Source: Candidatus Iainarchaeum sp.
GTDB taxonomy: Archaea; Iainarchaeota; Iainarchaeia; Iainarchaeales; VGJJ01
DNA: 32,000 bases
Assembly (NCBI GenBank): GCA_030688545.1
Contig: JAUYHT010000002.1
Span: forward strand, 30,001 to 62,000
Reading direction: 5' to 3'
Below the pieces are notes generated by a model. It had not been told where the DNA came from and ran no database searches. It saw only the letters and a list, made by a program, of their open reading frames with translations. A program made the translations under genes and the position numbers. Shown piece by piece: positions 10,757 through 31,435 of the stretch; the first letter of the stretch is position 1; every line of letters begins with the position of its first letter.

Positions 10757-11170
10757 ATGATTCCATTGCCCGTGAATTGGGTGGCGGTTATTGTCGCGGC
10801 GATTGCCGCCCAGGTAATCGGCTACCTATGGTATTCTCAAGGAGTTTTCGGGAAAGACTGGATGAAGGAATTAGGAATTTCTCCCAAGGAAATGAAAAAG
10901 GAAATGAAGGGGATGGAAGCCACCATGATCAAGGGCTTCCTGGGTTCCCTCATCATGGCCTACATTCTTGCCCAATTCCTGTTGCATACGCTTGCCGTGT
11001 CCCTCGCGGACGGAATGCTCACAGCCTTCTGGGCCTGGCTGGGATTCATCGCCGTGGTCATGTATGGCGGGGTGCTCTGGGAGAAGAAATCAGAGAAATG
11101 GTTCTGGATGAGCAGCCTCTACTATTTAGTGTCCCTGCTCGTGATGGCCATTATTTTGGTTTCGTTATAA
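10757..11170 (+). CDS. DUF1761-like small membrane protein
   Basis: The N-terminus NWVAVIVAAIAAQVIGYLWYSQGVFGKDWMKELG resembles the DUF1761 consensus as I remember it. There are four predicted TM helices, and an aaaggagg site lies 8 nt upstream of the ATG. Confidence 0.6.
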   Translation: MIPLPVNWVAVIVAAIAAQVIGYLWYSQGVFGKDWMKELGISPKEMKKEMKGMEATMIKGFLGSLIMAYILAQFLLHTLAVSLADGMLTAFWAWLGFIAVVMYGGVLWEKKSEKWFWMSSLYYLVSLLVMAIILVSL

Positions 11171-11483: not shown

Positions 11484-11978
11484 ATGCTTTCCATGTGGCC
11501 TGTAATCCAGAAGCCCTATTTCTGTGGCCCCGCCTGCCTGAAAATGGTACTCCGGCATTATGGGATAAAATCCCCCCGCCAAGGGGAGCTGGCCAAGCTC
11601 TGTCGATCAAAAGCCTACCGGCATGCCAATACGGGAACAGCCGGGAAGAATATTTTGGCTGCCGGAAAATCATTCGGCCTGGATGGGTTTCTCCAGGATA
11701 TGTCCACCTTTGGGGAACTGCGAGGATGGGTGGAAAAAAAGAAGGTCCCCGTGATCGTGAGCTGGTTCGCCTTTGATGAAGGGCACTATTCGGTGGCGGT
11801 GAAAGTGACCACACGCAAGATATATCTGCAGGACCCCGAATTGGGACACATCCGGGTGATGGATAAACCCAAATTCCTCCGCCTCTGGTTCGATTATTCA
11901 GGAGCATTTATCCGAGAGAAAAAAGATGTGCACGTGCGCCGGATGATCGTATTATATCCCAAGAAGAAAAAAAGCTAG
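11484..11978 (+). CDS. Stand-alone papain-like cysteine peptidase, C39-like family
   Basis: QKPYFCGPACLKMVLRHYG (Gln plus nucleophile Cys context), GHYSVAV (His) and LQDPE (Asp), in the order expected for C39-like peptidases. It has no signal peptide and no fused ABC transporter. A TATA-like atttaaag lies about 22 nt upstream, suggesting a leaderless transcript. Confidence 0.65.
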   Translation: MLSMWPVIQKPYFCGPACLKMVLRHYGIKSPRQGELAKLCRSKAYRHANTGTAGKNILAAGKSFGLDGFLQDMSTFGELRGWVEKKKVPVIVSWFAFDEGHYSVAVKVTTRKIYLQDPELGHIRVMDKPKFLRLWFDYSGAFIREKKDVHVRRMIVLYPKKKKS

Positions 11979-12924: not shown

Positions 12925-13236
12925 AGGTGAGTCGCCGGCCGTAAGCGGCCTTCTGTTCTGTCCCCATTCGCCTAAGCGTCGTCGCGACTTGCACTCCTCC
13001 GGCGGGAACCCGTTTCAATGCGCGTGCCGGAACGTCCTCTCTTCGATTCATCCTGCCCGGCAGGGCAGACCGTTTCTGTGCTCCCGCGGCCGCTCCCGCA
13101 GCCGGACGGAGATTGACCGAGTGGGCCGACTTTCCTCAGCAGTCGTTCGCAAGAGAGGCTGACAGTCGGTGCCCCATCCTAGGGGCGGGAGGCCGACCTC
13201 TCCTATTGACCACCGTCGGGGGACCACCGGCGACTC
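12925..13236 (-). ncRNA. rnpB: RNase P RNA (archaeal type)
   Basis: The minus strand reads GAGTCGCCGG...CTGAGGAAAGTCGGCC (CR-I GAGGAAAGTC at 13128-13137)...GCACAGAAACGGTCTGCC...GGACAGAACAGAAGGCCGCTTACGGCCGGCGACTC. The 5' GAGTCGCCGG (13236-13227) and 3' CCGGCGACTC (12938-12929) form a perfect 10-bp P1 helix. Length is about 310 nt and the region is GC-rich. ORFs 12857-13051 and 12914-13162 are artefacts. Confidence 0.85.
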
Positions 13237-15777: not shown

Positions 15778-15789
15778 GTGTAAGAATTC

Positions 15790-18740
<2,951 letters not shown>

Positions 18741-18774
18741 GAATCTCTTACACTCACTTAAAATTTTGGGAACA

Positions 18775-21065: not shown

Positions 21066-21785
21066 ATGCCCCCCCTCAAACGAGTCCGGCGGATGCTTCG
21101 CATCCCCATCCTTTCCGATGCCCGAGAGGTGCGCCGGCTGGAGACCCTGACCAAGGTGAGCCCGCGCGTCCGGAAATCCACTTTTTCCCCAACCGCTCTC
21201 AAGCGCCGACTGAGGGAGATCCAGCGTATCCAAAAACTGAAGGAGAACTTACGTCAAAGCAAGATGAAGTGGAAAAGGATGTTGGACGATTGGAGCCAAA
21301 ATCGTCGATTTGGGTTGCCCACTCAGCGCATATTCAACTACAACTATGCCAAATATCCCCTTGGAGAAATGGTCCTGGAAATCATGCTCAAGCCGGAAGC
21401 GGTAGGTCCTGATATTGATGGTGTCCGCTGGCGCATGCGGAAGAGCCAAAAGTTTGAATTAATTCCCATCTACCACTGGTCGACACCCCAATTCGTTGAG
21501 GGCGAATTTATAGGGAAAGCCACTATTACGGTCCATGGGAAGAATTATTTTGTGGCCCTCACTTACTCACGAAAAGAAGACGCTGTTAGGGCCGGAAGAA
21601 GTTTCTCACGCCAACCAAAAATTGAGCGAAGTGAGTCCGGTAATCCAGCATATATATTCCATTTCGATGGATGGTTCCCCCAACGAATTATAGATGAATA
21701 CATTAAGTTCAAAAATCTGAACAACCAATTCGTGGCCGCGCGCACCGCTTACCAAAGTCAATACTACAAACGGGGCTACCTCTGA
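21066..21785 (+). CDS. Hypothetical basic protein, no recognisable domain
   Basis: 239-aa ORF with an Arg/Lys-rich N-terminal third. The start is supported by the TATA spacing. Confidence 0.55.
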   Translation: MPPLKRVRRMLRIPILSDAREVRRLETLTKVSPRVRKSTFSPTALKRRLREIQRIQKLKENLRQSKMKWKRMLDDWSQNRRFGLPTQRIFNYNYAKYPLGEMVLEIMLKPEAVGPDIDGVRWRMRKSQKFELIPIYHWSTPQFVEGEFIGKATITVHGKNYFVALTYSRKEDAVRAGRSFSRQPKIERSESGNPAYIFHFDGWFPQRIIDEYIKFKNLNNQFVAARTAYQSQYYKRGYL

Positions 21786-21793
21786 ACGTACTC

Positions 21794-21875
21794 AAACAAA
21801 CTTTTTAGAAAAAAGTTTGATCAAAAAACTTGTTATAAAATAGTTTCATCATAAAACCATTTTTGAAAAAAGTTT
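21794..21875. repeat. A/T-only palindrome cluster C (AAACTTTTT-ag-AAAAAAGTTT, TTTGATCAAA)
   Basis: The stretch 21798-21818 is identical to 11314-11334 except for one loop base. It lies between convergent genes. Confidence 0.75.
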
Positions 21876-21942
21876 AATTGCTTCCTCATTCGACCTAAAG
21901 GCCGAGGAATTAGACCGTGAGACTGAAACAATCATTGGTTCG

Positions 21943-22497
21943 TTAAGGGTTGGGAATCATGGGTTCACAAGATCCCCAGAATGTTATCGCGCAGAGTGTT
22001 TTTACCTTGGGAACATCTGGAGGGTCATCGTAAAAAGAAGGTGTTGGAAAACAAGATGGTCTTTGATTGTTACCTAATTCTACAAAAATGGGACAATCGG
22101 TTTGAGTGGAACAAAACTGGCTTGAGATATTGCGGACATCAGCGATTGCGGCATCACAATGAGCCTGGGAATCAGAGGGACAAGAAACGCCATAATGAAT
22201 ATCTTCGTTCACATGTGGCCAATTTATATTGGTTCCACAGGAATACGGAACCCTCCTACCTGTCTGGGGATCGGTACAAACTATTTGAAATTCTCCTTGC
22301 TCATTAAACTCCCCGTTACAAATGGGTTCACCAGGGGGATGAATATCGCTTTCTGTAGAACCCGTGGTTCGGACTCCCTGAATGGCAAGACCGGTATTAG
22401 GATTGTTGCCAATGAGGTAAATGGATATCACCAAAATAGCTACTAATGCTATTACCAATGAAAACTGGTCCATCGAAAGGGTTTGGAATTTAGGCAT
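21943..22497 (-). CDS. Hypothetical extracytoplasmic Cys-rich protein (10 Cys) with an N-terminal hydrophobic anchor or signal
   Basis: MPKFQTLSMDQFSLVIALVAILVISIYLIG, then a domain with 10 Cys. The N-terminus vaguely resembles a class III (pilin-type) signal, QxxSxDxF followed by a hydrophobic stretch, but it lacks Gly/Ala at position -1. Confidence 0.6.
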   Translation of the reverse strand: MPKFQTLSMDQFSLVIALVAILVISIYLIGNNPNTGLAIQGVRTTGSTESDIHPPGEPICNGEFNEQGEFQIVCTDPQTGRRVPYSCGTNINWPHVNEDIHYGVSCPSDSQAHCDAAIADVRNISSQFCSTQTDCPIFVELGNNQRPSCFPTPSFYDDPPDVPKVKTLCAITFWGSCEPMIPNP

Positions 22498-22552: not shown

Positions 22553-22624
22553 TGGACCCGGCGGGACTTGAACCCGCAACCTTCTCGTTGCAAACGAGAC
22601 GCGCTACCATTGCGCCACAGGCCC
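22553..22624 (-). tRNA. tRNA-Ala (anticodon UGC), no encoded CCA
   Basis: Reverse complement: GGGCCTG TG GCGC AATGGTA GCGC G TCTCG TTTGCAA CGAGA AGGTT GCGGG TTCAAGT CCCGC CGGGTCC A. The G3-U70 alanine identity pair is present. Confidence 0.92.
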
Positions 22625-22829: not shown

Positions 22830-23438
22830 CTATTTGATTCCAAGGACATTGAGCTTGGGCAAATGTTCCTTGGGGAAATGACCGAAAATGATGAGCCAGG
22901 CGATGTACATGAAGATGGCCCAGAAGAATATCATAACTTGTCCCACCGAATCATGATGCAAGATCAAGGCCTCCGGAGAGAATTGCAATCCTACCAACAC
23001 GTCAGCCACAATGCGGAGGGTATTGCCTAAGAAGAGAAAGGGGACAAAGAGGAGCGACGCCACTCGGTGGGTCAATGGAAAAACCGGCATGAGGAATATG
23101 GTGAGGGGAAAAATGAGCATGAGCACCACGCCACTGCATTCCGCGGACACCTCCAGGGGTGGAAGACCCTCCACCACCAAATAATTTCCCCATGGAGCCG
23201 AAAACACCCCAATAAGGTTGAGGATAATGGCGGCCAACCAACTCGTGAGCTCGGGGAAAGGATAATAATAGGGAAATTCGAGCACCGCATAGGCTAAGAT
23301 GCCCCCCACCACAAGAAGGACAATGCCCCATTTGAGGATGTTTTTCCCCTGCTCCCTAAACGAAGATGTGGATGTGGCCGGCGTAGAGGTGTTTGGCTTG
23401 AGCGCCGCCGTTTGGGGGGTTGAATGATGTTGCATCAT
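22830..23438 (-). CDS. Archaeosortase/exosortase-family transpeptidase, short form (about 200 aa)
   Basis: Polytopic membrane protein with the family hallmarks in order: LEVSAECSGVVLM (Cys), LGNTLRIVADV (Arg), ILHHDSVGQVM (His). The ATG at 23438 overlaps the TGA of the upstream GT2 gene (ATGA). Confidence 0.8.
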   Translation of the reverse strand: MMQHHSTPQTAALKPNTSTPATSTSSFREQGKNILKWGIVLLVVGGILAYAVLEFPYYYPFPELTSWLAAIILNLIGVFSAPWGNYLVVEGLPPLEVSAECSGVVLMLIFPLTIFLMPVFPLTHRVASLLFVPFLFLGNTLRIVADVLVGLQFSPEALILHHDSVGQVMIFFWAIFMYIAWLIIFGHFPKEHLPKLNVLGIK

Positions 23439-24625
23439 CGGGTCCCCCAATGGGTATTCTTCATGGTGAGGAGGGCATAGATACGGGTGGGGATGAGAAG
23501 GAACACGTGGACTAATGCATACACGGGGAAGATAGTCAATCCCCAATCCCGGGTGCGGTAAATCCCATACATCCCCCGGATGAGGGCAATCCCAACGAGC
23601 ACGGCCAGATATCCTAACAAATAATACGGGCTAATCAGGGTAGAACGATAAATTGTGTAGCCTAAGGACAAAACGAGGAGCAAGGGCAGGATGAGCTGGA
23701 TGATCATGTCATAGATGATATAGGGATGGAGTTTCCTGGGGTGTCGAATCACCATCTTAATGGTCCACAATAGCTCGCGATAAAAACTCTTATTCCATCG
23801 CGTCTGCTGTTTGAGAAAACCTTGGATGGTTTGAGGGACATGGGTGAAAGCTACGGCGCGACGCTCGTAATGAACTTTGTAGCCTTTGTTCAGAATTAAA
23901 TTTGTCAGATGGCGGTCATCCCCATATGTGCATTTTTCTCCCAAGAAGACCTGGGAGATGTATTTCTCTTTCACATCATGGATGATGGAACTCCGATACG
24001 CCGCCAGGGGACCGGAGCAGCAGAGCACGGTGCCGAAAAGGCTTTGGGCGGCCCGCTCCTGATTGAACGCCGTCCAATACCTCCCATCAATAATCCGTGA
24101 AAGGATCTTCTTGGTCTTCACAACTTTCACATGACCGGTGGTGGCCCCCACTTGAGGGTCCTGAAAACGTTGAACCAGGTTGGCCACCGCATCCGGGAGT
24201 AATTGGGTGTCCGAATCAATGGTAACCAGTATTTCGGCATCGGAAGTCAAATGAATGATGTCAAACGCCTGCTTCTGGGCATGACGCTTTCCATTATTCT
24301 GGGGATTATGGACGAATCGAACGCGGGGGCTCCAGAGAAATTTTTTCCTAACTGCTAGAAAACCGGTTGGATCCTTGGAACCATCGTTCACCACGACAAT
24401 ATGGATGGAACCATTGTATTTCTGCTCCATGCATGATTGGACACAATTGGAAAGGGATTGGGGGTCCTCGTTATAGGTAGGGATGACGATGGATACGCTG
24501 GGAGTGAAGGAGGGATTGAAAGTGGATTTCAACGATCTCAGGTATTCAGCATGGGATAAATTAATCTGAACGAAGAGGTGGGTGAGGGCGAGAAGGCCGT
24601 AGATTGAAATGAGTTCTGCGATCAT
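23435..24625 (-). CDS. Processive family-2 glycosyltransferase, class I hyaluronan synthase / NodC / chitin synthase-like
   Basis: IVIPTYNED, VVVNDGS, NNGKRHAQKQAF, TIDSDT, ATGH, ERAAQSLFGTVLCCSGPLAAYR, YGDDRHLTN, LKQQTRWNKSFYRE and the C-terminal MKNTHWGTR. N- and C-terminal TM helices are present. From memory, this matches streptococcal HasA almost motif for motif. Confidence 0.88.
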   Translation of the reverse strand: MIAELISIYGLLALTHLFVQINLSHAEYLRSLKSTFNPSFTPSVSIVIPTYNEDPQSLSNCVQSCMEQKYNGSIHIVVVNDGSKDPTGFLAVRKKFLWSPRVRFVHNPQNNGKRHAQKQAFDIIHLTSDAEILVTIDSDTQLLPDAVANLVQRFQDPQVGATTGHVKVVKTKKILSRIIDGRYWTAFNQERAAQSLFGTVLCCSGPLAAYRSSIIHDVKEKYISQVFLGEKCTYGDDRHLTNLILNKGYKVHYERRAVAFTHVPQTIQGFLKQQTRWNKSFYRELLWTIKMVIRHPRKLHPYIIYDMIIQLILPLLLVLSLGYTIYRSTLISPYYLLGYLAVLVGIALIRGMYGIYRTRDWGLTIFPVYALVHVFLLIPTRIYALLTMKNTHWGTR

Positions 24626-24697
24626 CTCGTCCCCAACCTCACGTGTCGTTCATCCTATTTCCTGGAGGAGGTATTCCCGATGTGGTTTGATTCACCG

Positions 24698-25411
24698 CTA
24701 CAGTCCTTTTACGCGGCGTGTGTATAGGAAGAATCCACTTCCCAGCATGAGGGTAGCCAGCATTCCAGCCACGAGGGGGTGGATAGGCACTTTCAGGTCG
24801 CCCGACTCTGCCACGGGGGCATTGTCAGCGAAGGCACGAAACCATATTTCACCCGTCTGCATGATGGGACCTGGTTCCTGGTCGTCGCGGGTCACCGTGT
24901 AGGTGACTTGCGCGCTTTCCCCGGGAAGGATGATGCCAAACATATGGCTTCCATTCGTGTTCCCCTGGTTATTGGTGGGGGGACTCACTATCCAGGAATC
25001 GGGGGTATTGCGCAAATCCCCTCGCGTATTGAGGGAGGGAACATTGCCCACATTGGTTACGGTTACTTCCACCTGGAAAGTGTCTCCCGCATTGGCCGCG
25101 CTCCCGATGATCGACGCTTGGACCAGCAATAATGTCTGCTGGGCCGGCTGGGACTGCTGAACATCTCCCGTGATAGGGATGGGTTCGATGTCTGAAACTA
25201 TATCATTAGGCGCCGCATCCGAAATGGGATCAGCTATCTCATTTTCCTGGTCGGCTGCCTCTTCGGTTTCCTCAGCCAGTTCAAATGCATCCGTGTCGGA
25301 TATCTCATTGTCTTCCGGTCCAATAGAATCGGTAAACGCGTCCTGAGTCATTCCCCACACGACCGGGGCGCTCAATATGGCAATTAACGCCAAGACTACA
25401 GTGAATCGCAT
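24698..25411 (-). CDS. Secreted surface protein A with a C-terminal VPIHPLVA-TM-RR sorting signal (putative archaeosortase cargo)
   Basis: An aggagg site precedes the start. Signal peptide MRFTVVLALIAILSAPVVWG, an Asp/Glu-rich linker, then a CARDB-like beta-sandwich pattern (GDTFQVEVTVTNVGNV...GESAQVTYTVTRD). The tail is KVPIHPLVAGMLATLMLGSGFFLYTRRVKGL. Confidence 0.75.
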   Translation of the reverse strand: MRFTVVLALIAILSAPVVWGMTQDAFTDSIGPEDNEISDTDAFELAEETEEAADQENEIADPISDAAPNDIVSDIEPIPITGDVQQSQPAQQTLLLVQASIIGSAANAGDTFQVEVTVTNVGNVPSLNTRGDLRNTPDSWIVSPPTNNQGNTNGSHMFGIILPGESAQVTYTVTRDDQEPGPIMQTGEIWFRAFADNAPVAESGDLKVPIHPLVAGMLATLMLGSGFFLYTRRVKGL

Positions 25412-25560
25412 CGTTATCATCCTCCTGATGGTTAAAGTTTGCGTTAAACGGTATTCTTCGTCGCGTGCTTAAATACATGCTTTACGAAACCTTTATGCCA
25501 AGGTAGGGTTAACTTTTGTCCCTGAAAATGAATAGAAAACTTTATCTCTTGAGAAAAATA

Positions 25561-26103
25561 TTAGCTGGGACAATGTGATTGGCCTGTTTTTTCCAAATAC
25601 ATTTGATGATATTCCTCGGCCCGATAGAAGACTGAAGCCGGTTCGATGGTCGTCGTGATGGGAAGGGGGTATTTTTTTGAAGCGATTTCCTGTTTTATTG
25701 ACTTTTCAGCCGTCGCCAGTTGCGCTTGGGAATGATAGAAAATGACACTCCGGTATTGGCTCCCCCTGTCAGGACCTTGCCGGTTTCCCTGGGTGGGATC
25801 ATGGATGTCCCAGAATACGCGCAAGAGGGCATCATATGAGACTTTTTTAGGGTCGAATGACAAGTGGCACACCTCCACATGCCCGGTTTTTCCCGAGCAT
25901 ACTTGGGCATACGTCGGGTGAGCCTTTGTTCCCCCCATAAAACCAACCGTCGTATCCACTACGCCATTCACCCGGCGGAAGGATTGTTCCACCCCCCAAA
26001 AACAGCCGGCCCCGAAGGTGGCTAATTCGAACTTACCTGGGATGGGTAGTGGAGTCACGCCTACTCCAAATACGTTCCACTCTATAAAAATAGGTGCCGG
26101 CAC
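25561..26103 (-). CDS. msrA: Peptide methionine-S-sulfoxide reductase
   Basis: GAGCFWGVE active site, [19 protein letters not shown] and YHQMYL. GTG start as listed; the true start is uncertain. Confidence 0.92.
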
Positions 26104-26269: not shown

Positions 26270-26965
26270 TCAGCTTACCTGTTTCCGGCGCAAATACACC
26301 CCGTACCCGCCCAGCATCGAACCCACGAGGGCGAATGCCACGAGCGGATGGATAGGGACCCTCAACGCATTAGAAGTGGCCTTATTGGTATTATCTCCTT
26401 TCGCTTCGAAAACGAGGGTTGAATCTTCGGCGTCGCGGGTGATAGTATAAATGAATTCACGACTATCTCCTGACGGCAAATCGCCGAAATCCGCCATCTT
26501 ATCGGCCGGTGTCACTTGCCACCCTTCTGGTACGAACATGAGTTCGCCCATCACATTTTCAGCGGTCACCATCCCCACGTTGGAAATGATAGCTTTCACC
26601 TTGAAGGTGTCGCCCTCTTCCTGGTAGGGGCCATCAATGAACAGATGGGCAATCAACAACGTCCTTCCATTGTCTTTCATCGTATTGATGAGAATTAAGT
26701 TTTTTACCAGTACTTGCTGGGTCGATTTAAGGACTACTCTTTCCTGCAGTCCGTCATCACTATTGATGAAGACCTGTTTAGCATTGCCTACTGACGTTTC
26801 ATGATCCACCTGGACTGTCACGGATTGAGTTTCCCCTTCCACGGAAGCATGGTTCTGGTTGTCCACGCTCGCTTCCGAAGAAGAATCCATGGACGTCCCA
26901 TCGGCCCACGCGGGGGACCCCAGTAGGAACAATGACGCCACGGCCAGGACTAAAAGATTCTTCAT
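26270..26965 (-). CDS. Secreted surface protein B with a C-terminal VPIHPLVA-TM-RR sorting signal (paralog of 24698-25411)
   Basis: taggaggtga lies 4 nt before the ATG at 26965. Signal peptide MKNLLVLAVASLFLLGSPAWA, then a CARDB-like segment (GDTFKVKAIISNVGMV...GDSREFIYTITRD). The tail is RVPIHPLVAFALVGSMLGGYGVYLRRKQVS. Confidence 0.75.
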   Translation of the reverse strand: MKNLLVLAVASLFLLGSPAWADGTSMDSSSEASVDNQNHASVEGETQSVTVQVDHETSVGNAKQVFINSDDGLQERVVLKSTQQVLVKNLILINTMKDNGRTLLIAHLFIDGPYQEEGDTFKVKAIISNVGMVTAENVMGELMFVPEGWQVTPADKMADFGDLPSGDSREFIYTITRDAEDSTLVFEAKGDNTNKATSNALRVPIHPLVAFALVGSMLGGYGVYLRRKQVS

Positions 26966-27176
26966 TGATTCACCTCCTAAGTTGAATATCCACACACCCC
27001 ACGGCCTGCGGCATTATTATTCATACTTTCTGACACTTTACGGGTTTTTTCTAATGCAGCAAGATATGTTCGAAACTTGACAGGAGTGTCTGTAATTAAT
27101 TAAAATAAGTGATGAAATGTCCATTCCCTGACATGACGGAAGATTATATGAAAAAGCGCTGGAATATTTTTCCCGC

Positions 27177-27818
27177 TCACTTCTGTAGCAATTTGAAGGC
27201 GTGGTTCCAGTGATTATTGAAGAATCCATAGTGGGTCCACAGGATAGCCATGTTTTCAAGGAGGTAACTTTGAGTGATGTCTCCCAGATCATGGACCTCC
27301 CACCCCACCCCCTTTACAAATTCACTCACTTGCTGTTTGGTGGGGGCATCGTTTCCGCAAATGAATAAGGTGGGGGTTCCATCCTTTAATGCAGGATTAA
27401 GCATGTAGGCCGCGGTAACGATGTTGAAGCATTTCACCACTTTGGATTGGGGTAACAAGTCTTGCACCCGCTTTCCCATGGAATCCGGATACACGATTCC
27501 GGGCACCGGAGGCTTTCCTTCAACCTCGAATTTCAATGGGTTGGTGGTGTCGATGACTATCTTCCCAGAAAAATGCTCCTTTTTGGCCAATTCAATGGCA
27601 TTTTCCACCCCATCCCACTTGGTGCAGAGCACGAGCCACTCCCCAAATTTAGCCGCCTCCTCATTCGAAGCTGCGCAGGCAGAAACTCTTTCCTTCTCCA
27701 ACTCCGCATTCGCCTTTTCAGGGGAACGCGTTCCCAGCACGACTTGGTGCCCCAAGCGAATAAAATCCTTAGCGAGGGTCCTTCCCACGGACCCTGAACC
27801 AATGATGCCTACCTTCAT
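27177..27818 (-). CDS. NAD(P)-binding oxidoreductase of the F420_oxidored / NADPH-dependent F420 reductase (NpdG)-like family
   Basis: Rossmann motif KVGIIGSGSVGRTLA and the overall NpdG-like length and pattern. The start is chosen 8 nt after aggaggg; alternatives run up to 27827. Confidence 0.7.
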   Translation of the reverse strand: MKVGIIGSGSVGRTLAKDFIRLGHQVVLGTRSPEKANAELEKERVSACAASNEEAAKFGEWLVLCTKWDGVENAIELAKKEHFSGKIVIDTTNPLKFEVEGKPPVPGIVYPDSMGKRVQDLLPQSKVVKCFNIVTAAYMLNPALKDGTPTLFICGNDAPTKQQVSEFVKGVGWEVHDLGDITQSYLLENMAILWTHYGFFNNHWNHAFKLLQK

Positions 27819-27904
27819 ACTCATCACCCTCCTTCTGGTGATAGATTAGGACAGGTACACTGGGGCCAATTAAAGATATGCCAATATGTTTTTCTCAAAA
27901 AGAA

Positions 27905-30112: not shown

Positions 30113-31435
30113 ATGCGGAAAACCATTGTGGAGAGGATGCCGGGGGCCCACCTCACCAAAATCATCTCCTGCCTGGACGAAAACCAAAAGGGCTTGCTCA
30201 AAGAAAGCCCCCACTCGGTGATTGTTGCCGATATGGAAGGGCATGTGGTGGCCTGCAATGCGGGGGCCGGGGACTTATTTGGGTATACGAAAACAGAGAT
30301 GATTGGCACCCATGTCAAAGTTTTCCATCCCCCCCAAAATTATGCCCGGATCCTCCCTGAATTGTTTCGCACGGCCCTGCAGAAAGGAATTTATGATCAG
30401 ATTATTACCCTCCAGAAGAAAGACCACCAACCCTTTCTCGCCCGCATCATCGTTACGCGCATCCTCGGAACGGATGGAAAGCCCATTGCCCTCATGGGGG
30501 TTACCTCGCCCGCCCAAAAAGCCCCCTCTATTGGTTTTATCGCCACTTGGATTAGGGCCCTCCGCGCGCCTTTCTTCACGGCAACCCTCATCCCTATTTT
30601 TTTAGGAACCGCCATTGCCTTCTCCGCTACGGGAACATTTTCATTCTGGCCATTCTTCTGGACGGTATGGGGCATGCTCTTCATCCACGCGGGAGTAAAC
30701 TTAGCCAATGATTATTTCGACCATCAAACAGGGAATGATGAATTGAATCCGCACCCCACGCCCTTCAGTGGGGGCAGCCGGGTGATTCAGGAAGGATTGG
30801 TGGCTCCGAATACGATAAGGAATGTCGCCCTCCTCTGCCTCGCCGTTGGATCCCTCATCGGATTATATCTCAATTCCCTTGTCCCGGGGAACCTCATCCT
30901 GGTTTTAGGGGTTTTGGGAGTGGGTATCGGATTCTTCTATAGCAGCCCACCCCTCGCGGCGAGCTACAAACGATTGGGGGAATTATGTGTCGCTTTAGGA
31001 TTCGGGCCCCTCATTGTATTAGGCAGCTATGTCGTCCAAACACAATCCTTTTCCATTATCCCCTTGGTGGCCTCCATCCCCATCGCTTTGCTCATCGTTG
31101 GGGTCCTATTCCTCAACCAGTTCCCCGATTTTGAGGCTGATGTGAAATCACAGAAGCGAAACCTGTTGAACACTTGGGGCAAACCCACGGGGGTCAAACT
31201 CCTCACCTATGGAGTGGCGGCTGTTTTCATATTCACGGGAGCAGGGGTCATATCTGGATTATTTCCCCCGCTCGCGGGACTTACATTACTGGCGCTCCCC
31301 TTCGCCTACGCCATGCTCACCACGCTCCGCACCCACTATGATCAGGTGCTCGAATTGCTCCCCGCCAACGCCAATATGATCAAATTGCATTTTACCTATG
31401 GATTGCTTTTTACTATTGCTTTCCTGGTGGGATGA
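30113..31435 (+). CDS. menA: PAS domain fused to a 1,4-dihydroxy-2-naphthoate polyprenyltransferase-like UbiA-family enzyme
   Basis: Residues about 25-135 form a PAS fold (SPHSVIVADMEGHVVACNAGAGDLFGYTKTEMIG...KDHQPFLARIIVTRILGTDGKPIALMGV). The remainder is a polytopic UbiA enzyme with MenA-type motifs NLANDYFDHQTGND and NQFPDFEADVKSQKRN. Confidence 0.82.
   Translation: MRKTIVERMPGAHLTKIISCLDENQKGLLKESPHSVIVADMEGHVVACNAGAGDLFGYTKTEMIGTHVKVFHPPQNYARILPELFRTALQKGIYDQIITLQKKDHQPFLARIIVTRILGTDGKPIALMGVTSPAQKAPSIGFIATWIRALRAPFFTATLIPIFLGTAIAFSATGTFSFWPFFWTVWGMLFIHAGVNLANDYFDHQTGNDELNPHPTPFSGGSRVIQEGLVAPNTIRNVALLCLAVGSLIGLYLNSLVPGNLILVLGVLGVGIGFFYSSPPLAASYKRLGELCVALGFGPLIVLGSYVVQTQSFSIIPLVASIPIALLIVGVLFLNQFPDFEADVKSQKRNLLNTWGKPTGVKLLTYGVAAVFIFTGAGVISGLFPPLAGLTLLALPFAYAMLTTLRTHYDQVLELLPANANMIKLHFTYGLLFTIAFLVG

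Follow-up and report, generated by a model that had tools for sequence, protein, structure and literature searches.

Why should an archaeon encode an enzyme that looks like a hyaluronan synthase (HAS), and why should a gene for a protein-sorting enzyme start on the last letters of its gene? These questions are raised by a stretch of 32,000 nucleotides of Candidatus Iainarchaeum sp. (contig JAUYHT010000002.1, positions 30,001 to 62,000), the whole of which is called the window below. A first, sequence-only reading of it had pointed to an open reading frame (ORF) at 23435-24625 as a Class I HAS-like synthase, and had proposed that its polymer and sorted proteins are assembled together on the cell surface. 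We find that the synthase gene belongs to a conserved module of three genes, the other two coding for a protein of the exosortase/archaeosortase family and for a target protein with a matching sorting signal. We consider it fairly probable, at roughly 60%, that these genes form a cell-surface assembly module consisting of a processive synthase of the HAS/NodC superfamily, a short archaeosortase and a secreted, dedicated target.

The three-gene cassette and its conservation

All genes of the cassette lie on the minus strand. The synthase gene (23435..24625) codes for 396 amino acids from an ATG start, and its TGA stop overlaps the ATG start of the sortase gene (22830..23438, 202 aa) in the tetranucleotide ATGA at 23435..23438. 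This overlap suggests translational coupling of the two genes; the NCBI gene model of the same metagenome-assembled genome (MAG; P0121) uses the same 202-aa start. On the other side of the synthase, a 72-nt spacer (24626..24697), with a Shine-Dalgarno-like element GAGGT about 12 nt upstream of the synthase ATG, separates it from the gene of the first target protein (target 1; 24698..25420), an ORF of 240 aa that the NCBI model begins at 25411 (237 aa). Judged from this layout, target 1, synthase and sortase would form one operon.

The linkage was surveyed in both directions, starting from the synthase in named GTDB genomes and public contigs and starting from the sortase in metagenome contigs. 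In the first survey the sortase gene was found directly behind the synthase in 20 out of 20 loci of the archaeal clade, the pair either overlapping or abutting. These loci belong to uncultured DPANN, Woesearchaeota, Iainarchaeum, Pacearchaeota, Thermoplasmatota, 'Methanobacteriota' and Euryarchaeota MAGs, and most of them also have an adjoining homolog of the target, the gene of which precedes the synthase in DPANN but follows the sortase in Thermoplasmatota. In the second survey a HAS-like synthase was present upstream in all 37 loci with enough upstream sequence, the other four of the 41 being cut by the contig end; the target was present in 34 of the 41. The sortase subfamily itself comprises about 38 clusters at 50% identity, lying above a clear score break among 1.84 billion representative proteins. 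The sortase-linked glycosyltransferases form one clade with a bootstrap support of 79-87%. The set of synthase, sortase and target is a conserved three-gene module, and the genetic coupling is far stronger than could be seen from one window.

In four metagenome loci (L054, L057, Thermoplasmatales-type contigs) a gene for a GalU-like sugar-1-phosphate nucleotidylyltransferase follows the cassette at a distance of 1-3 kb. It was the sole sugar-activation gene seen near any archaeal copy of the cassette.

The synthase has the fold and the motifs of HAS

Translation of the synthase ORF located a GKR motif (24284-24292), the metal- and nucleotide-binding DSD (24209..24217), which is invariant in the family and aligns with the DxD of CvHAS and XlHAS1 (PMC12987647), the catalytic GDDR (23912..23923), QQTRW (23795..23809), a QxxRW motif on the interface helix whose R276 corresponds to R381 of XlHAS1, and the gating-loop motif WGTR (23438..23449). 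The last consists of the final four residues of the protein, with the stop codon directly after it (to 23435), so that the WGT(S/R)G-type loop of HASs is cut to a C-terminal WGTR. The stretches ERAAQS, CSGPL..YR and KNTHWGTR were also seen, which completes the motif set quoted in the sequence-only reading. The motifs are not coincidental: in an alignment of 85 family sequences the DxD, GDD, QxxRW and WGTR columns are invariant or nearly so, and the match to HASs extends over the whole protein. As a hallmark of HAS the set has to be read more widely, since it marks the HAS/NodC superfamily and alone is not diagnostic of hyaluronan.

Pfam detected Glycos_transf_2 (2e-27) and Chitin_synth_2 (1e-16). 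The only strong matches among sequences of solved structures were the hyaluronan synthases CvHAS of Chlorella virus and XlHAS1 of Xenopus (1e-57), with chitin synthases at about 5e-5. An AlphaFold2 model built with 85 homologs had a mean predicted local distance difference test score (pLDDT) of 94.1 and a predicted template modelling score (pTM) of 0.92; the pLDDT was below 50 for residues 394-396. In this model an N-terminal transmembrane (TM) helix (residues 2-32) is followed by the GT-A domain (44-261), the interface helix with QQTRW (267-294), three membrane helices (301-386) and the gating-loop tail. A Foldseek search of the PDB with the model returned CvHAS or XlHAS1 as the top 13 matches, with TM-scores of 0.86-0.90 over the query and E of about 1e-29. 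The next protein followed at 4e-16, a gap of 13 logs, and chitin and cellulose synthases at about 1e-13. Chitin synthases gave TM-scores of 0.5-0.65, and a chitin synthase of the eukaryotic or oomycete type was rejected on these sequence and fold values. The protein thus adopts the HAS fold, in which a GT-A domain is joined to interface and TM helices. Both by sequence and by fold its nearest solved structures are Class I hyaluronan synthases, as had been proposed, and its best homologs are processive-type family 2 glycosyltransferases (GT2s), not non-processive ones.

To place the synthase, 47 sequences were aligned: the sortase-linked archaeal proteins, bacterial relatives, two NodC, the pXO1 HasA, two Listeria relatives, the PDB-aligned parts of CvHAS and XlHAS1, and PgaC as outgroup. 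A neighbour-joining tree, in which the CvHAS and XlHAS1 sequences are partial, supported NodC (100), HasA with Listeria (91) and CvHAS with XlHAS1 (95) as clades beside that of the archaeal proteins. At 12 positions the validated enzymes, or those encoded next to a UDP-glucose 6-dehydrogenase (Ugd), agree with each other and differ from NodC; the archaeal clade is of HAS type at all 12. Examples are GDD against GED in NodC, WGTR against WLSR and Arg182 against Glu. The channel residues H72, R287, R296 and K448 of XlHAS1, which lie near the glucuronic acid (GlcA) units of the nascent chain (PMC11750622), map to H16, R182, R191 and R350 of the archaeal synthase and are kept in 18-19 of 19 clade members. 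The first two of these positions are occupied by Tyr and Glu in NodC. The W, T and R of the gating loop, essential in XlHAS1 (PMC11750622), map to W393, T395 and R396 and are conserved in the archaeal clade. The tunnel-capping residues L19 and R349 of NodC (S. meliloti; PMC9795070) align with Ala13 and Arg350; this comparison is uninformative because XlHAS1 has Lys at the second of these points in an open channel.

The Class I-NR enzymes CvHAS (PDB 7SP6-7SPA) and XlHAS1 (PDB 8SMM-8SMP) are the best matches, sharing with the archaeal protein the DxD, GDDR, QxxRW and WGT(R) elements, a switch-loop Cys, a priming-loop Cys and the channel residues. They differ from it in identity (about 34%) and length (570-600 aa against 396), and the archaeal enzyme has an archaeosortase and a dedicated target as its partners, with no gene for UDP-GlcA supply seen nearby. 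Class I-R HasA (streptococcal, and the Bacillus anthracis/cereus pXO1-type hasACB) has the same form of about 400 aa ending in WGTR, the same motifs and 38-40% identity. However, it falls in a separate clade, is encoded in an operon with galU and UDP-glucose dehydrogenase, and lacks the switch-loop Cys, the priming-loop Cys and the equivalent of His16; against CvHAS it scores 122 bits, compared with 199 for the archaeal protein. NodC has the length and helix layout of the archaeal synthase and aligns over its full length (33-36% identity, R349 with R350), but differs at the 12 signature positions, in having Leu rather than Ala at the L19 cap, and in its neighbours. The best NCBIfam model for the synthase is in fact NodC (TIGR04242), matched over the full length at 317 bits. 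The equivalog cutoff of this model is 550; a true NodC scores 750, the Bacillus pXO1 HasA 205 and a Ugd-linked Lactococcus enzyme 319. The NodC assignment was rejected on the sub-cutoff score and on the equal score of the Ugd-linked enzyme. Neither the archaeal cassette nor the homologous loci have a nod operon context (nodA, nodB, nodIJ), and true nodC follows nodB. Overall, sequence comparison places the synthase in the HAS/NodC superfamily, with signatures of the HAS type but outside NodC, Class I-R and Class I-NR.

The coupled archaeosortase-family protein

The sequence-only reading was right about the coupling, and its partner is an exosortase/archaeosortase homolog (TIGR04178) rather than a classical sortase. 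The 202-aa protein scores 37 bits on that model (cutoff 23), and seven orthologs 36-47 bits. Its signature residues are found in ECSG (23130-23141), GNTLR (23013-23027) and HHDSVGQ (22938-22958), and the corresponding elements E-C-x-G, G-N-x-x-R and H-x-[ST]-x-G-Q, with the Cys, Arg and His of the family, are invariant in 20 orthologs. None of the cutoffs of the named subfamilies (ArtA-F, XrtA-Z, heimdallarchaeosortase) was reached by the protein or the seven orthologs; the nearest model was that of the short-form ArtE, which has a cutoff of 95 and gave 28-44 bits. By these scores it is a member of the exosortase/archaeosortase superfamily outside every named subfamily. A candidate fusion of glycosyltransferase and sortase (P0177, 575 aa) was rejected, being an exosortase-HTH protein from outside the subfamily.

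Two known arrangements are similar. In the XrtG system of Gram-positive bacteria an exosortase-family protein is encoded beside a membrane GT2, which is the same concept, and both of its models match the archaeal pair weakly: the glycosyltransferase scores 72 against a cutoff of 364 (TIGR03111), the sortase 18-33 against 103 (TIGR03110). By its NCBIfam description, that system has a different GT2 subfamily, is bacterial and has other accessory genes. ArtA-ArtF (with PGF-, VPXXXP-, PEF-CTERM and other substrates) and the PEP-CTERM/EpsH system share with the cassette the family signature, the Cys/Arg/His residues, substrates that have a signal peptide and a tripartite tail, and an association with polysaccharide loci (PMC6098224, PMC1569441); the cassette sortase differs in having one or two targets instead of many and in its obligate pairing with a HAS-type synthase.

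The target proteins

Target 1 consists of a signal peptide, an acidic disordered linker, a beta-sandwich (residues 98-205, confidently modelled by AlphaFold2) and a C-terminal sorting signal (24701..24790) made of VPIHP, a hydrophobic helix and the basic cluster RRVK. A second target (target 2; 26270..26995, called gene start 26965; sorting signal 26273-26359) is encoded two genes further upstream on the same strand. It is a paralog, with 37% identity to target 1 over sandwich and tail. Thus a signal peptide is combined with the motif, hydrophobic helix and basic cluster expected of a sorted protein. Within cassette loci the tail, in which some 20 hydrophobic residues and then a basic cluster come after [V/I]-P-[I/V/L], is essentially confined to the cassette protein. 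None of the curated CTERM or sorting-domain models matched it, even at E=10.

The linker of target 1 (residues 19-95; 25136-25366, minus strand) is a disordered stretch of about 75 aa rich in Asp and Glu, and is missing from orthologs of about 160 aa. Target 2 has an N-terminal extension of its own, unrelated to this linker. Foldseek described the sandwich of target 1 as a generic Ig-like/CARDB/TRAP-beta type, and the fold was accordingly set aside as a clue to function.

Relatives of the synthase without a sortase

In the bacterial members of the synthase family (45-51% identity) a sortase was present in none of the loci examined. Among the Firmicutes relatives examined (Lactococcus, Pseudolactococcus, Vagococcus and Pilibacter) the synthase gene is always directly beside that of Ugd. 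These loci show 44-51% identity (L007:4747-7164, L026, L027, L031, L036, L041, L042), the first of them lying on the mobilizable dairy Lactococcus plasmid pUCCL639B. From their context the Ugd-linked enzymes are probably synthases of a GlcA polymer, hyaluronan-like or type-3-capsule-like, distinct from streptococcal HasA.

Other contexts were also observed. In Candidatus Daviesbacteria of the Candidate Phyla Radiation (CPR; L005:2921-6194 / L025) the synthase abuts a 692-aa DUF2334 protein, followed by small unannotated ORFs of 74 and 208 aa. In MAGs of Solirubrobacteraceae (L032:7944-10034, L033:6277-8646, L034) an EAL domain is fused to the C-terminus after WGTR, which suggests a variant of the HAS-like synthase linked to cyclic di-GMP. 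Saccharibacteria neighbourhoods showed no consistent partner, only housekeeping genes. More distant archaeal GT2s of the HAS/NodC type (33-43% identity) occur without the sortase in Woesearchaeota (L043:68-1333), where a 700-aa surface protein with Lamin-tail and Ig-like domains follows, in Methanosarcinales (L046), where a PMT_2-family glycosyltransferase precedes, and in Bathyarchaeia (L048).

How the cassette may work

If the three genes act as a surface assembly module, the synthase would polymerise UDP-sugars at the cytoplasmic face, chemistry of the UDP-N-acetylglucosamine (UDP-GlcNAc) type being what we hold certain in this scheme, and, if it resembles HAS in this (PMC11750622, PMC10939387), would most likely pass the chain to the outside through the transmembrane region of the enzyme itself. 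The target, of 160-290 aa, would be secreted by its signal peptide and held briefly in the membrane by the [V/I]-P-[I/V/L] motif, TM segment and Arg/Lys tail. The translationally coupled archaeosortase would then cleave this tail with its Cys, Arg and His residues, as proposed for ArtA and exosortases (PMC6098224, PMC1569441), and could pass the beta-sandwich protein on to a surface acceptor, either a lipid, as with ArtA, or the nascent glycan. The result would be a polysaccharide coat that bears, or is anchored by, one dedicated protein. The sequence itself establishes a processive synthase of HAS fold whose catalytic and gating residues are intact, a homolog of sortase-type transpeptidases with intact catalytic residues, a secreted protein that carries the tripartite signal, and the obligate linkage of the three genes. 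That the operon is expressed, the polymer exported and the target cleaved is inferred, as are the acceptor and the sugar composition.

Several observations weigh against this proposal. The synthase is without TMH1 and TMH5-6 of CvHAS and XlHAS1, and the TM-score normalised to the target structure is only about 0.7. Its chain ends at the gating loop, short of the complete intrinsic channel of Class I-NR enzymes (TMH1-6); the similarity of membrane topology noted in the sequence-only reading extends to the short, HasA-like form and not to the three TM helices that viral and vertebrate enzymes have in addition. In a model of NodC, which has the same short architecture, the tunnel is a dead end and oligomers are set free in the cytoplasm (PMC9795070); export of a polymer by the archaeal synthase is therefore no more than probable. 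Residues K177 and R341 of CvHAS, which sandwich the GlcA carboxylate of the donor (PMC12987647), are not diagnostic as GlcA markers, as NodC and PgaC have both. The branching order among the clades is unsettled, the deep nodes of the tree having bootstrap values of 55 or less, and a claim that the family is closest to Class I-NR HAS was dropped for this reason. No UDP-glucose dehydrogenase was found in about 445 kb of sequence flanking the cassette in 61 archaeal and metagenomic loci, nor in the whole window and a further 10 kb downstream (42 kb around this cassette). Finally, disruption of the founding exosortase EpsH left exopolysaccharide production unaffected (PMC1569441), so genetic linkage need not mean chemical linkage. 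On the first of these difficulties, export fits better than a NodC-like dead end because the sortase and its substrate are an extracellular partnership and because exporters of the nodIJ type are lacking.

As to the product, the sequence-only reading had named no polymer, noting the lack of UDP-glucose dehydrogenase and chitin-related genes in the window. This observation holds, also for the next 10 kb downstream, and neither stretch has any sugar-nucleotide gene; leaving the polymer unnamed was right, as the sequence does not decide between a hyaluronan-like and a chitin-like chain. From sequence features we would put a GlcA-containing, hyaluronan-like polymer at somewhat under one half, a chitin-like GlcNAc polymer at about two in five and any other product at around one in seven. 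The GlcA-containing chain is favoured by channel and loop residues of the HAS type and by the relatives encoded beside Ugd, the chitin-like chain by the missing Ugd in the cassette-flanking sequence and the reduced metabolism of DPANN.

The chitin-like outcome can be stated as an alternative to the module as a whole, namely that the enzyme is a synthase of chitin or chito-oligosaccharides which uses UDP-GlcNAc only and exports its beta-1,4-GlcNAc chain or hands it over at the membrane. Class I HASs make chitin oligomers from UDP-GlcNAc alone, and such a synthase would agree with the Chitin_synth_2 match, with NodC as the best full-length NCBIfam model and the same length and helix count as NodC, and with the missing UDP-GlcA supply gene. 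It is harder to reconcile with a NodC score that is far below the cutoff and no different from that of a Ugd-linked enzyme, with GDD in place of GED and the 11 other discriminating positions that are also non-NodC, with the distance of the solved chitin synthases, and with the lack of nodA-, nodB- and nodIJ-like neighbours. We regard it as a possible reading, though at odds of only about one in three.

A bona fide HAS is slightly harder to sustain. Here the cell would carry a capsule of true hyaluronan (GlcNAc-GlcA), the UDP-GlcA would come from a dehydrogenase elsewhere in the genome, and sortase and target would merely decorate or anchor the capsule. The HAS fold and the full set of HAS signature residues agree with this. 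So does the equivalent of XlHAS1 R287, a residue beside GlcA-2 of the nascent chain, which is invariant in the archaeal clade and replaced by Glu in both NodC and PgaC. Moreover, the nearest relatives with an informative context (48-51% identity) are those beside Ugd, and they differ consistently from the archaeal clade at only 8 positions, seven of them conservative hydrophobic swaps and one a Tyr/Ile exchange (position 70). On the other hand, no Ugd accompanies the archaeal cassettes, DPANN genomes are metabolically reduced, and the relatives beside Ugd still await characterisation; they could make another GlcA polymer, of which the pneumococcal type 3 capsule is an example. The DUF2334 partner in Daviesbacteria, which we take to belong to a clan of deacetylases and glycoside hydrolases, would point to a GlcNAc polymer. 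True hyaluronan is for these reasons a tentative and rather unlikely assignment.

About equally doubtful is the view that the link between synthase and sortase is regulatory only: the sortase would lipid-anchor a small protein in the manner of ArtA and PGF-CTERM, the synthase would make a separate secreted polymer, and the genes would share an operon as an envelope programme. The substrates of ArtA are indeed lipid-anchored and not glycan-anchored (PMC6098224), the EpsH result is of the same tendency, and the position of the target gene varies between DPANN and Thermoplasmatota. But the junction of glycosyltransferase and sortase is constant across phyla, with the genes overlapping or abutting, the sortase subfamily was never found without the glycosyltransferase in testable loci, and the presence of just one or two targets resembles a dedicated partner rather than the substrates of a general envelope sortase.

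The opposite and stronger claim, that the archaeosortase, in resolving its acyl-enzyme intermediate, joins the C-terminus of the target covalently to the nascent chain of the HAS-like synthase or to a derived sugar-lipid, with synthase and sortase in one membrane complex and a hyaluronan- or chitin-like coat tethered in this way to the wall-less cells of DPANN and Thermoplasmatota, appears unlikely to us. If it were true, the bond between target and polysaccharide would be a prokaryotic 'proteoglycan' or a linkage similar to glycosylphosphatidylinositol anchors. The joint assembly of polymer and proteins suggested in the sequence-only reading is strengthened as a genetic association, and the physical joining of the two is conjecture.

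Least probable by far is that the exosortase homolog is not a protease but a membrane subunit standing in for TMH5-6 of the short synthase: the synthase does stop at the gating loop, exactly where CvHAS and XlHAS1 go on with two channel helices, and the next, translationally coupled gene does encode a polytopic membrane protein, but its Cys/Arg/His signature residues are invariant, a matching tripartite substrate lies beside it in 34 of the 41 sortase-first loci, and the same short form occurs without such a partner in HasA of the streptococcal type and in the relatives beside Ugd.

The window around the cassette

The genome that carries the synthase is archaeal, because the window holds a complete archaeal large subunit (LSU, 23S) rRNA (2488 bits) and an archaeal RNase P RNA, and because an identical 396-aa synthase is on record from a MAG of 'Candidatus Diapherotrites archaeon' (DPANN lineage). 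The 23S rRNA gene (15779-18750, minus strand) has no adjoining 16S or 5S rRNA gene within the window, and the rRNA genes appear to be unlinked. The RNase P RNA (12929-13175, minus strand) barely reached the Rfam gathering score (84.9 against 84). Other genes of the window code for aspartate carbamoyltransferase, H+-pyrophosphatase, alanyl-tRNA synthetase, MsrA, VKOR, a PAS-UbiA protein and similar functions. The PAS-UbiA protein (30113-31435, plus strand) is a UbiA-family prenyltransferase with a fused N-terminal PAS domain, and a polyprenyl synthase gene (L052) comes next, just beyond the window.

A tRNA-Ala(TGC) gene (22553-22624, minus strand) is located 205 nt downstream of the sortase gene. 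A mobile island beside it was considered and rejected, no att-like direct repeat being detected. Three AT-rich direct repeats of 19 nt, spaced by 28-29 nt, lie at 21803-21878 between the ORFs 21066..21785 (plus strand) and 21943..22497 (minus strand) and may be a regulatory or promoter-region element. The genes for MsrA (25561-26103, minus strand, between the two target paralogs), an F420_oxidored-like reductase (27177-27827, minus strand), a C39 peptidase (11484-11978, plus strand) and a DUF1761 protein (10757-11170, plus strand) recur near the cassette in closely related DPANN contigs (L001, L011, L038). This recurrence probably reflects local synteny, not function.

Implications

A search of the accessible literature found no paper linking an exosortase with a hyaluronan synthase, or a hyaluronan synthase with DPANN, Thermoplasmatota or CPR, and archaea are not mentioned in a 2023 review of HAS. 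The Class I HASs listed so far (PMC10939387) come only from streptococci, vertebrates and a single chlorovirus, Bacillus and Cryptococcus being candidates. In public annotation the cassette proteins appear only as 'glycosyltransferase', 'hyaluronan synthase' (a JGI label) and 'exosortase/archaeosortase family protein'. The module of synthase, sortase and target is apparently undescribed; what is known already is that exosortases accompany exopolysaccharide loci (PMC1569441) and that NCBIfam has an XrtG-associated GT2 family (TIGR03111).

For the synthase, the finding means that it belongs to a large and tightly conserved prokaryotic family of minimal HAS-fold enzymes, which bears on the origin of HAS. 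This family is no more distant from viral and vertebrate HAS than streptococcal-type HasA, and shares with them channel and loop residues that HasA lacks. A corollary of the covalent-linkage reading, which we likewise rate as unlikely, is that the WGTR-ending proteins of about 395 aa in archaea, CPR, Firmicutes and Actinobacteria represent the prokaryotic pool behind the Class I-NR HASs of viruses and vertebrates. The 396-aa enzyme is also probably a robust scaffold for structural and engineering work.

For the sortase, the acceptor of exosortases and archaeosortases, and the reason for their placement in polysaccharide loci, have been an open question since 2006; with one synthase, one sortase and one substrate the cassette is close to the simplest possible test bed for the acceptor. 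Cells of DPANN and Thermoplasmatota often have no conventional wall, and a coat of glycan plus protein could matter for the integrity of these cells or for the attachment of an episymbiont to its host.

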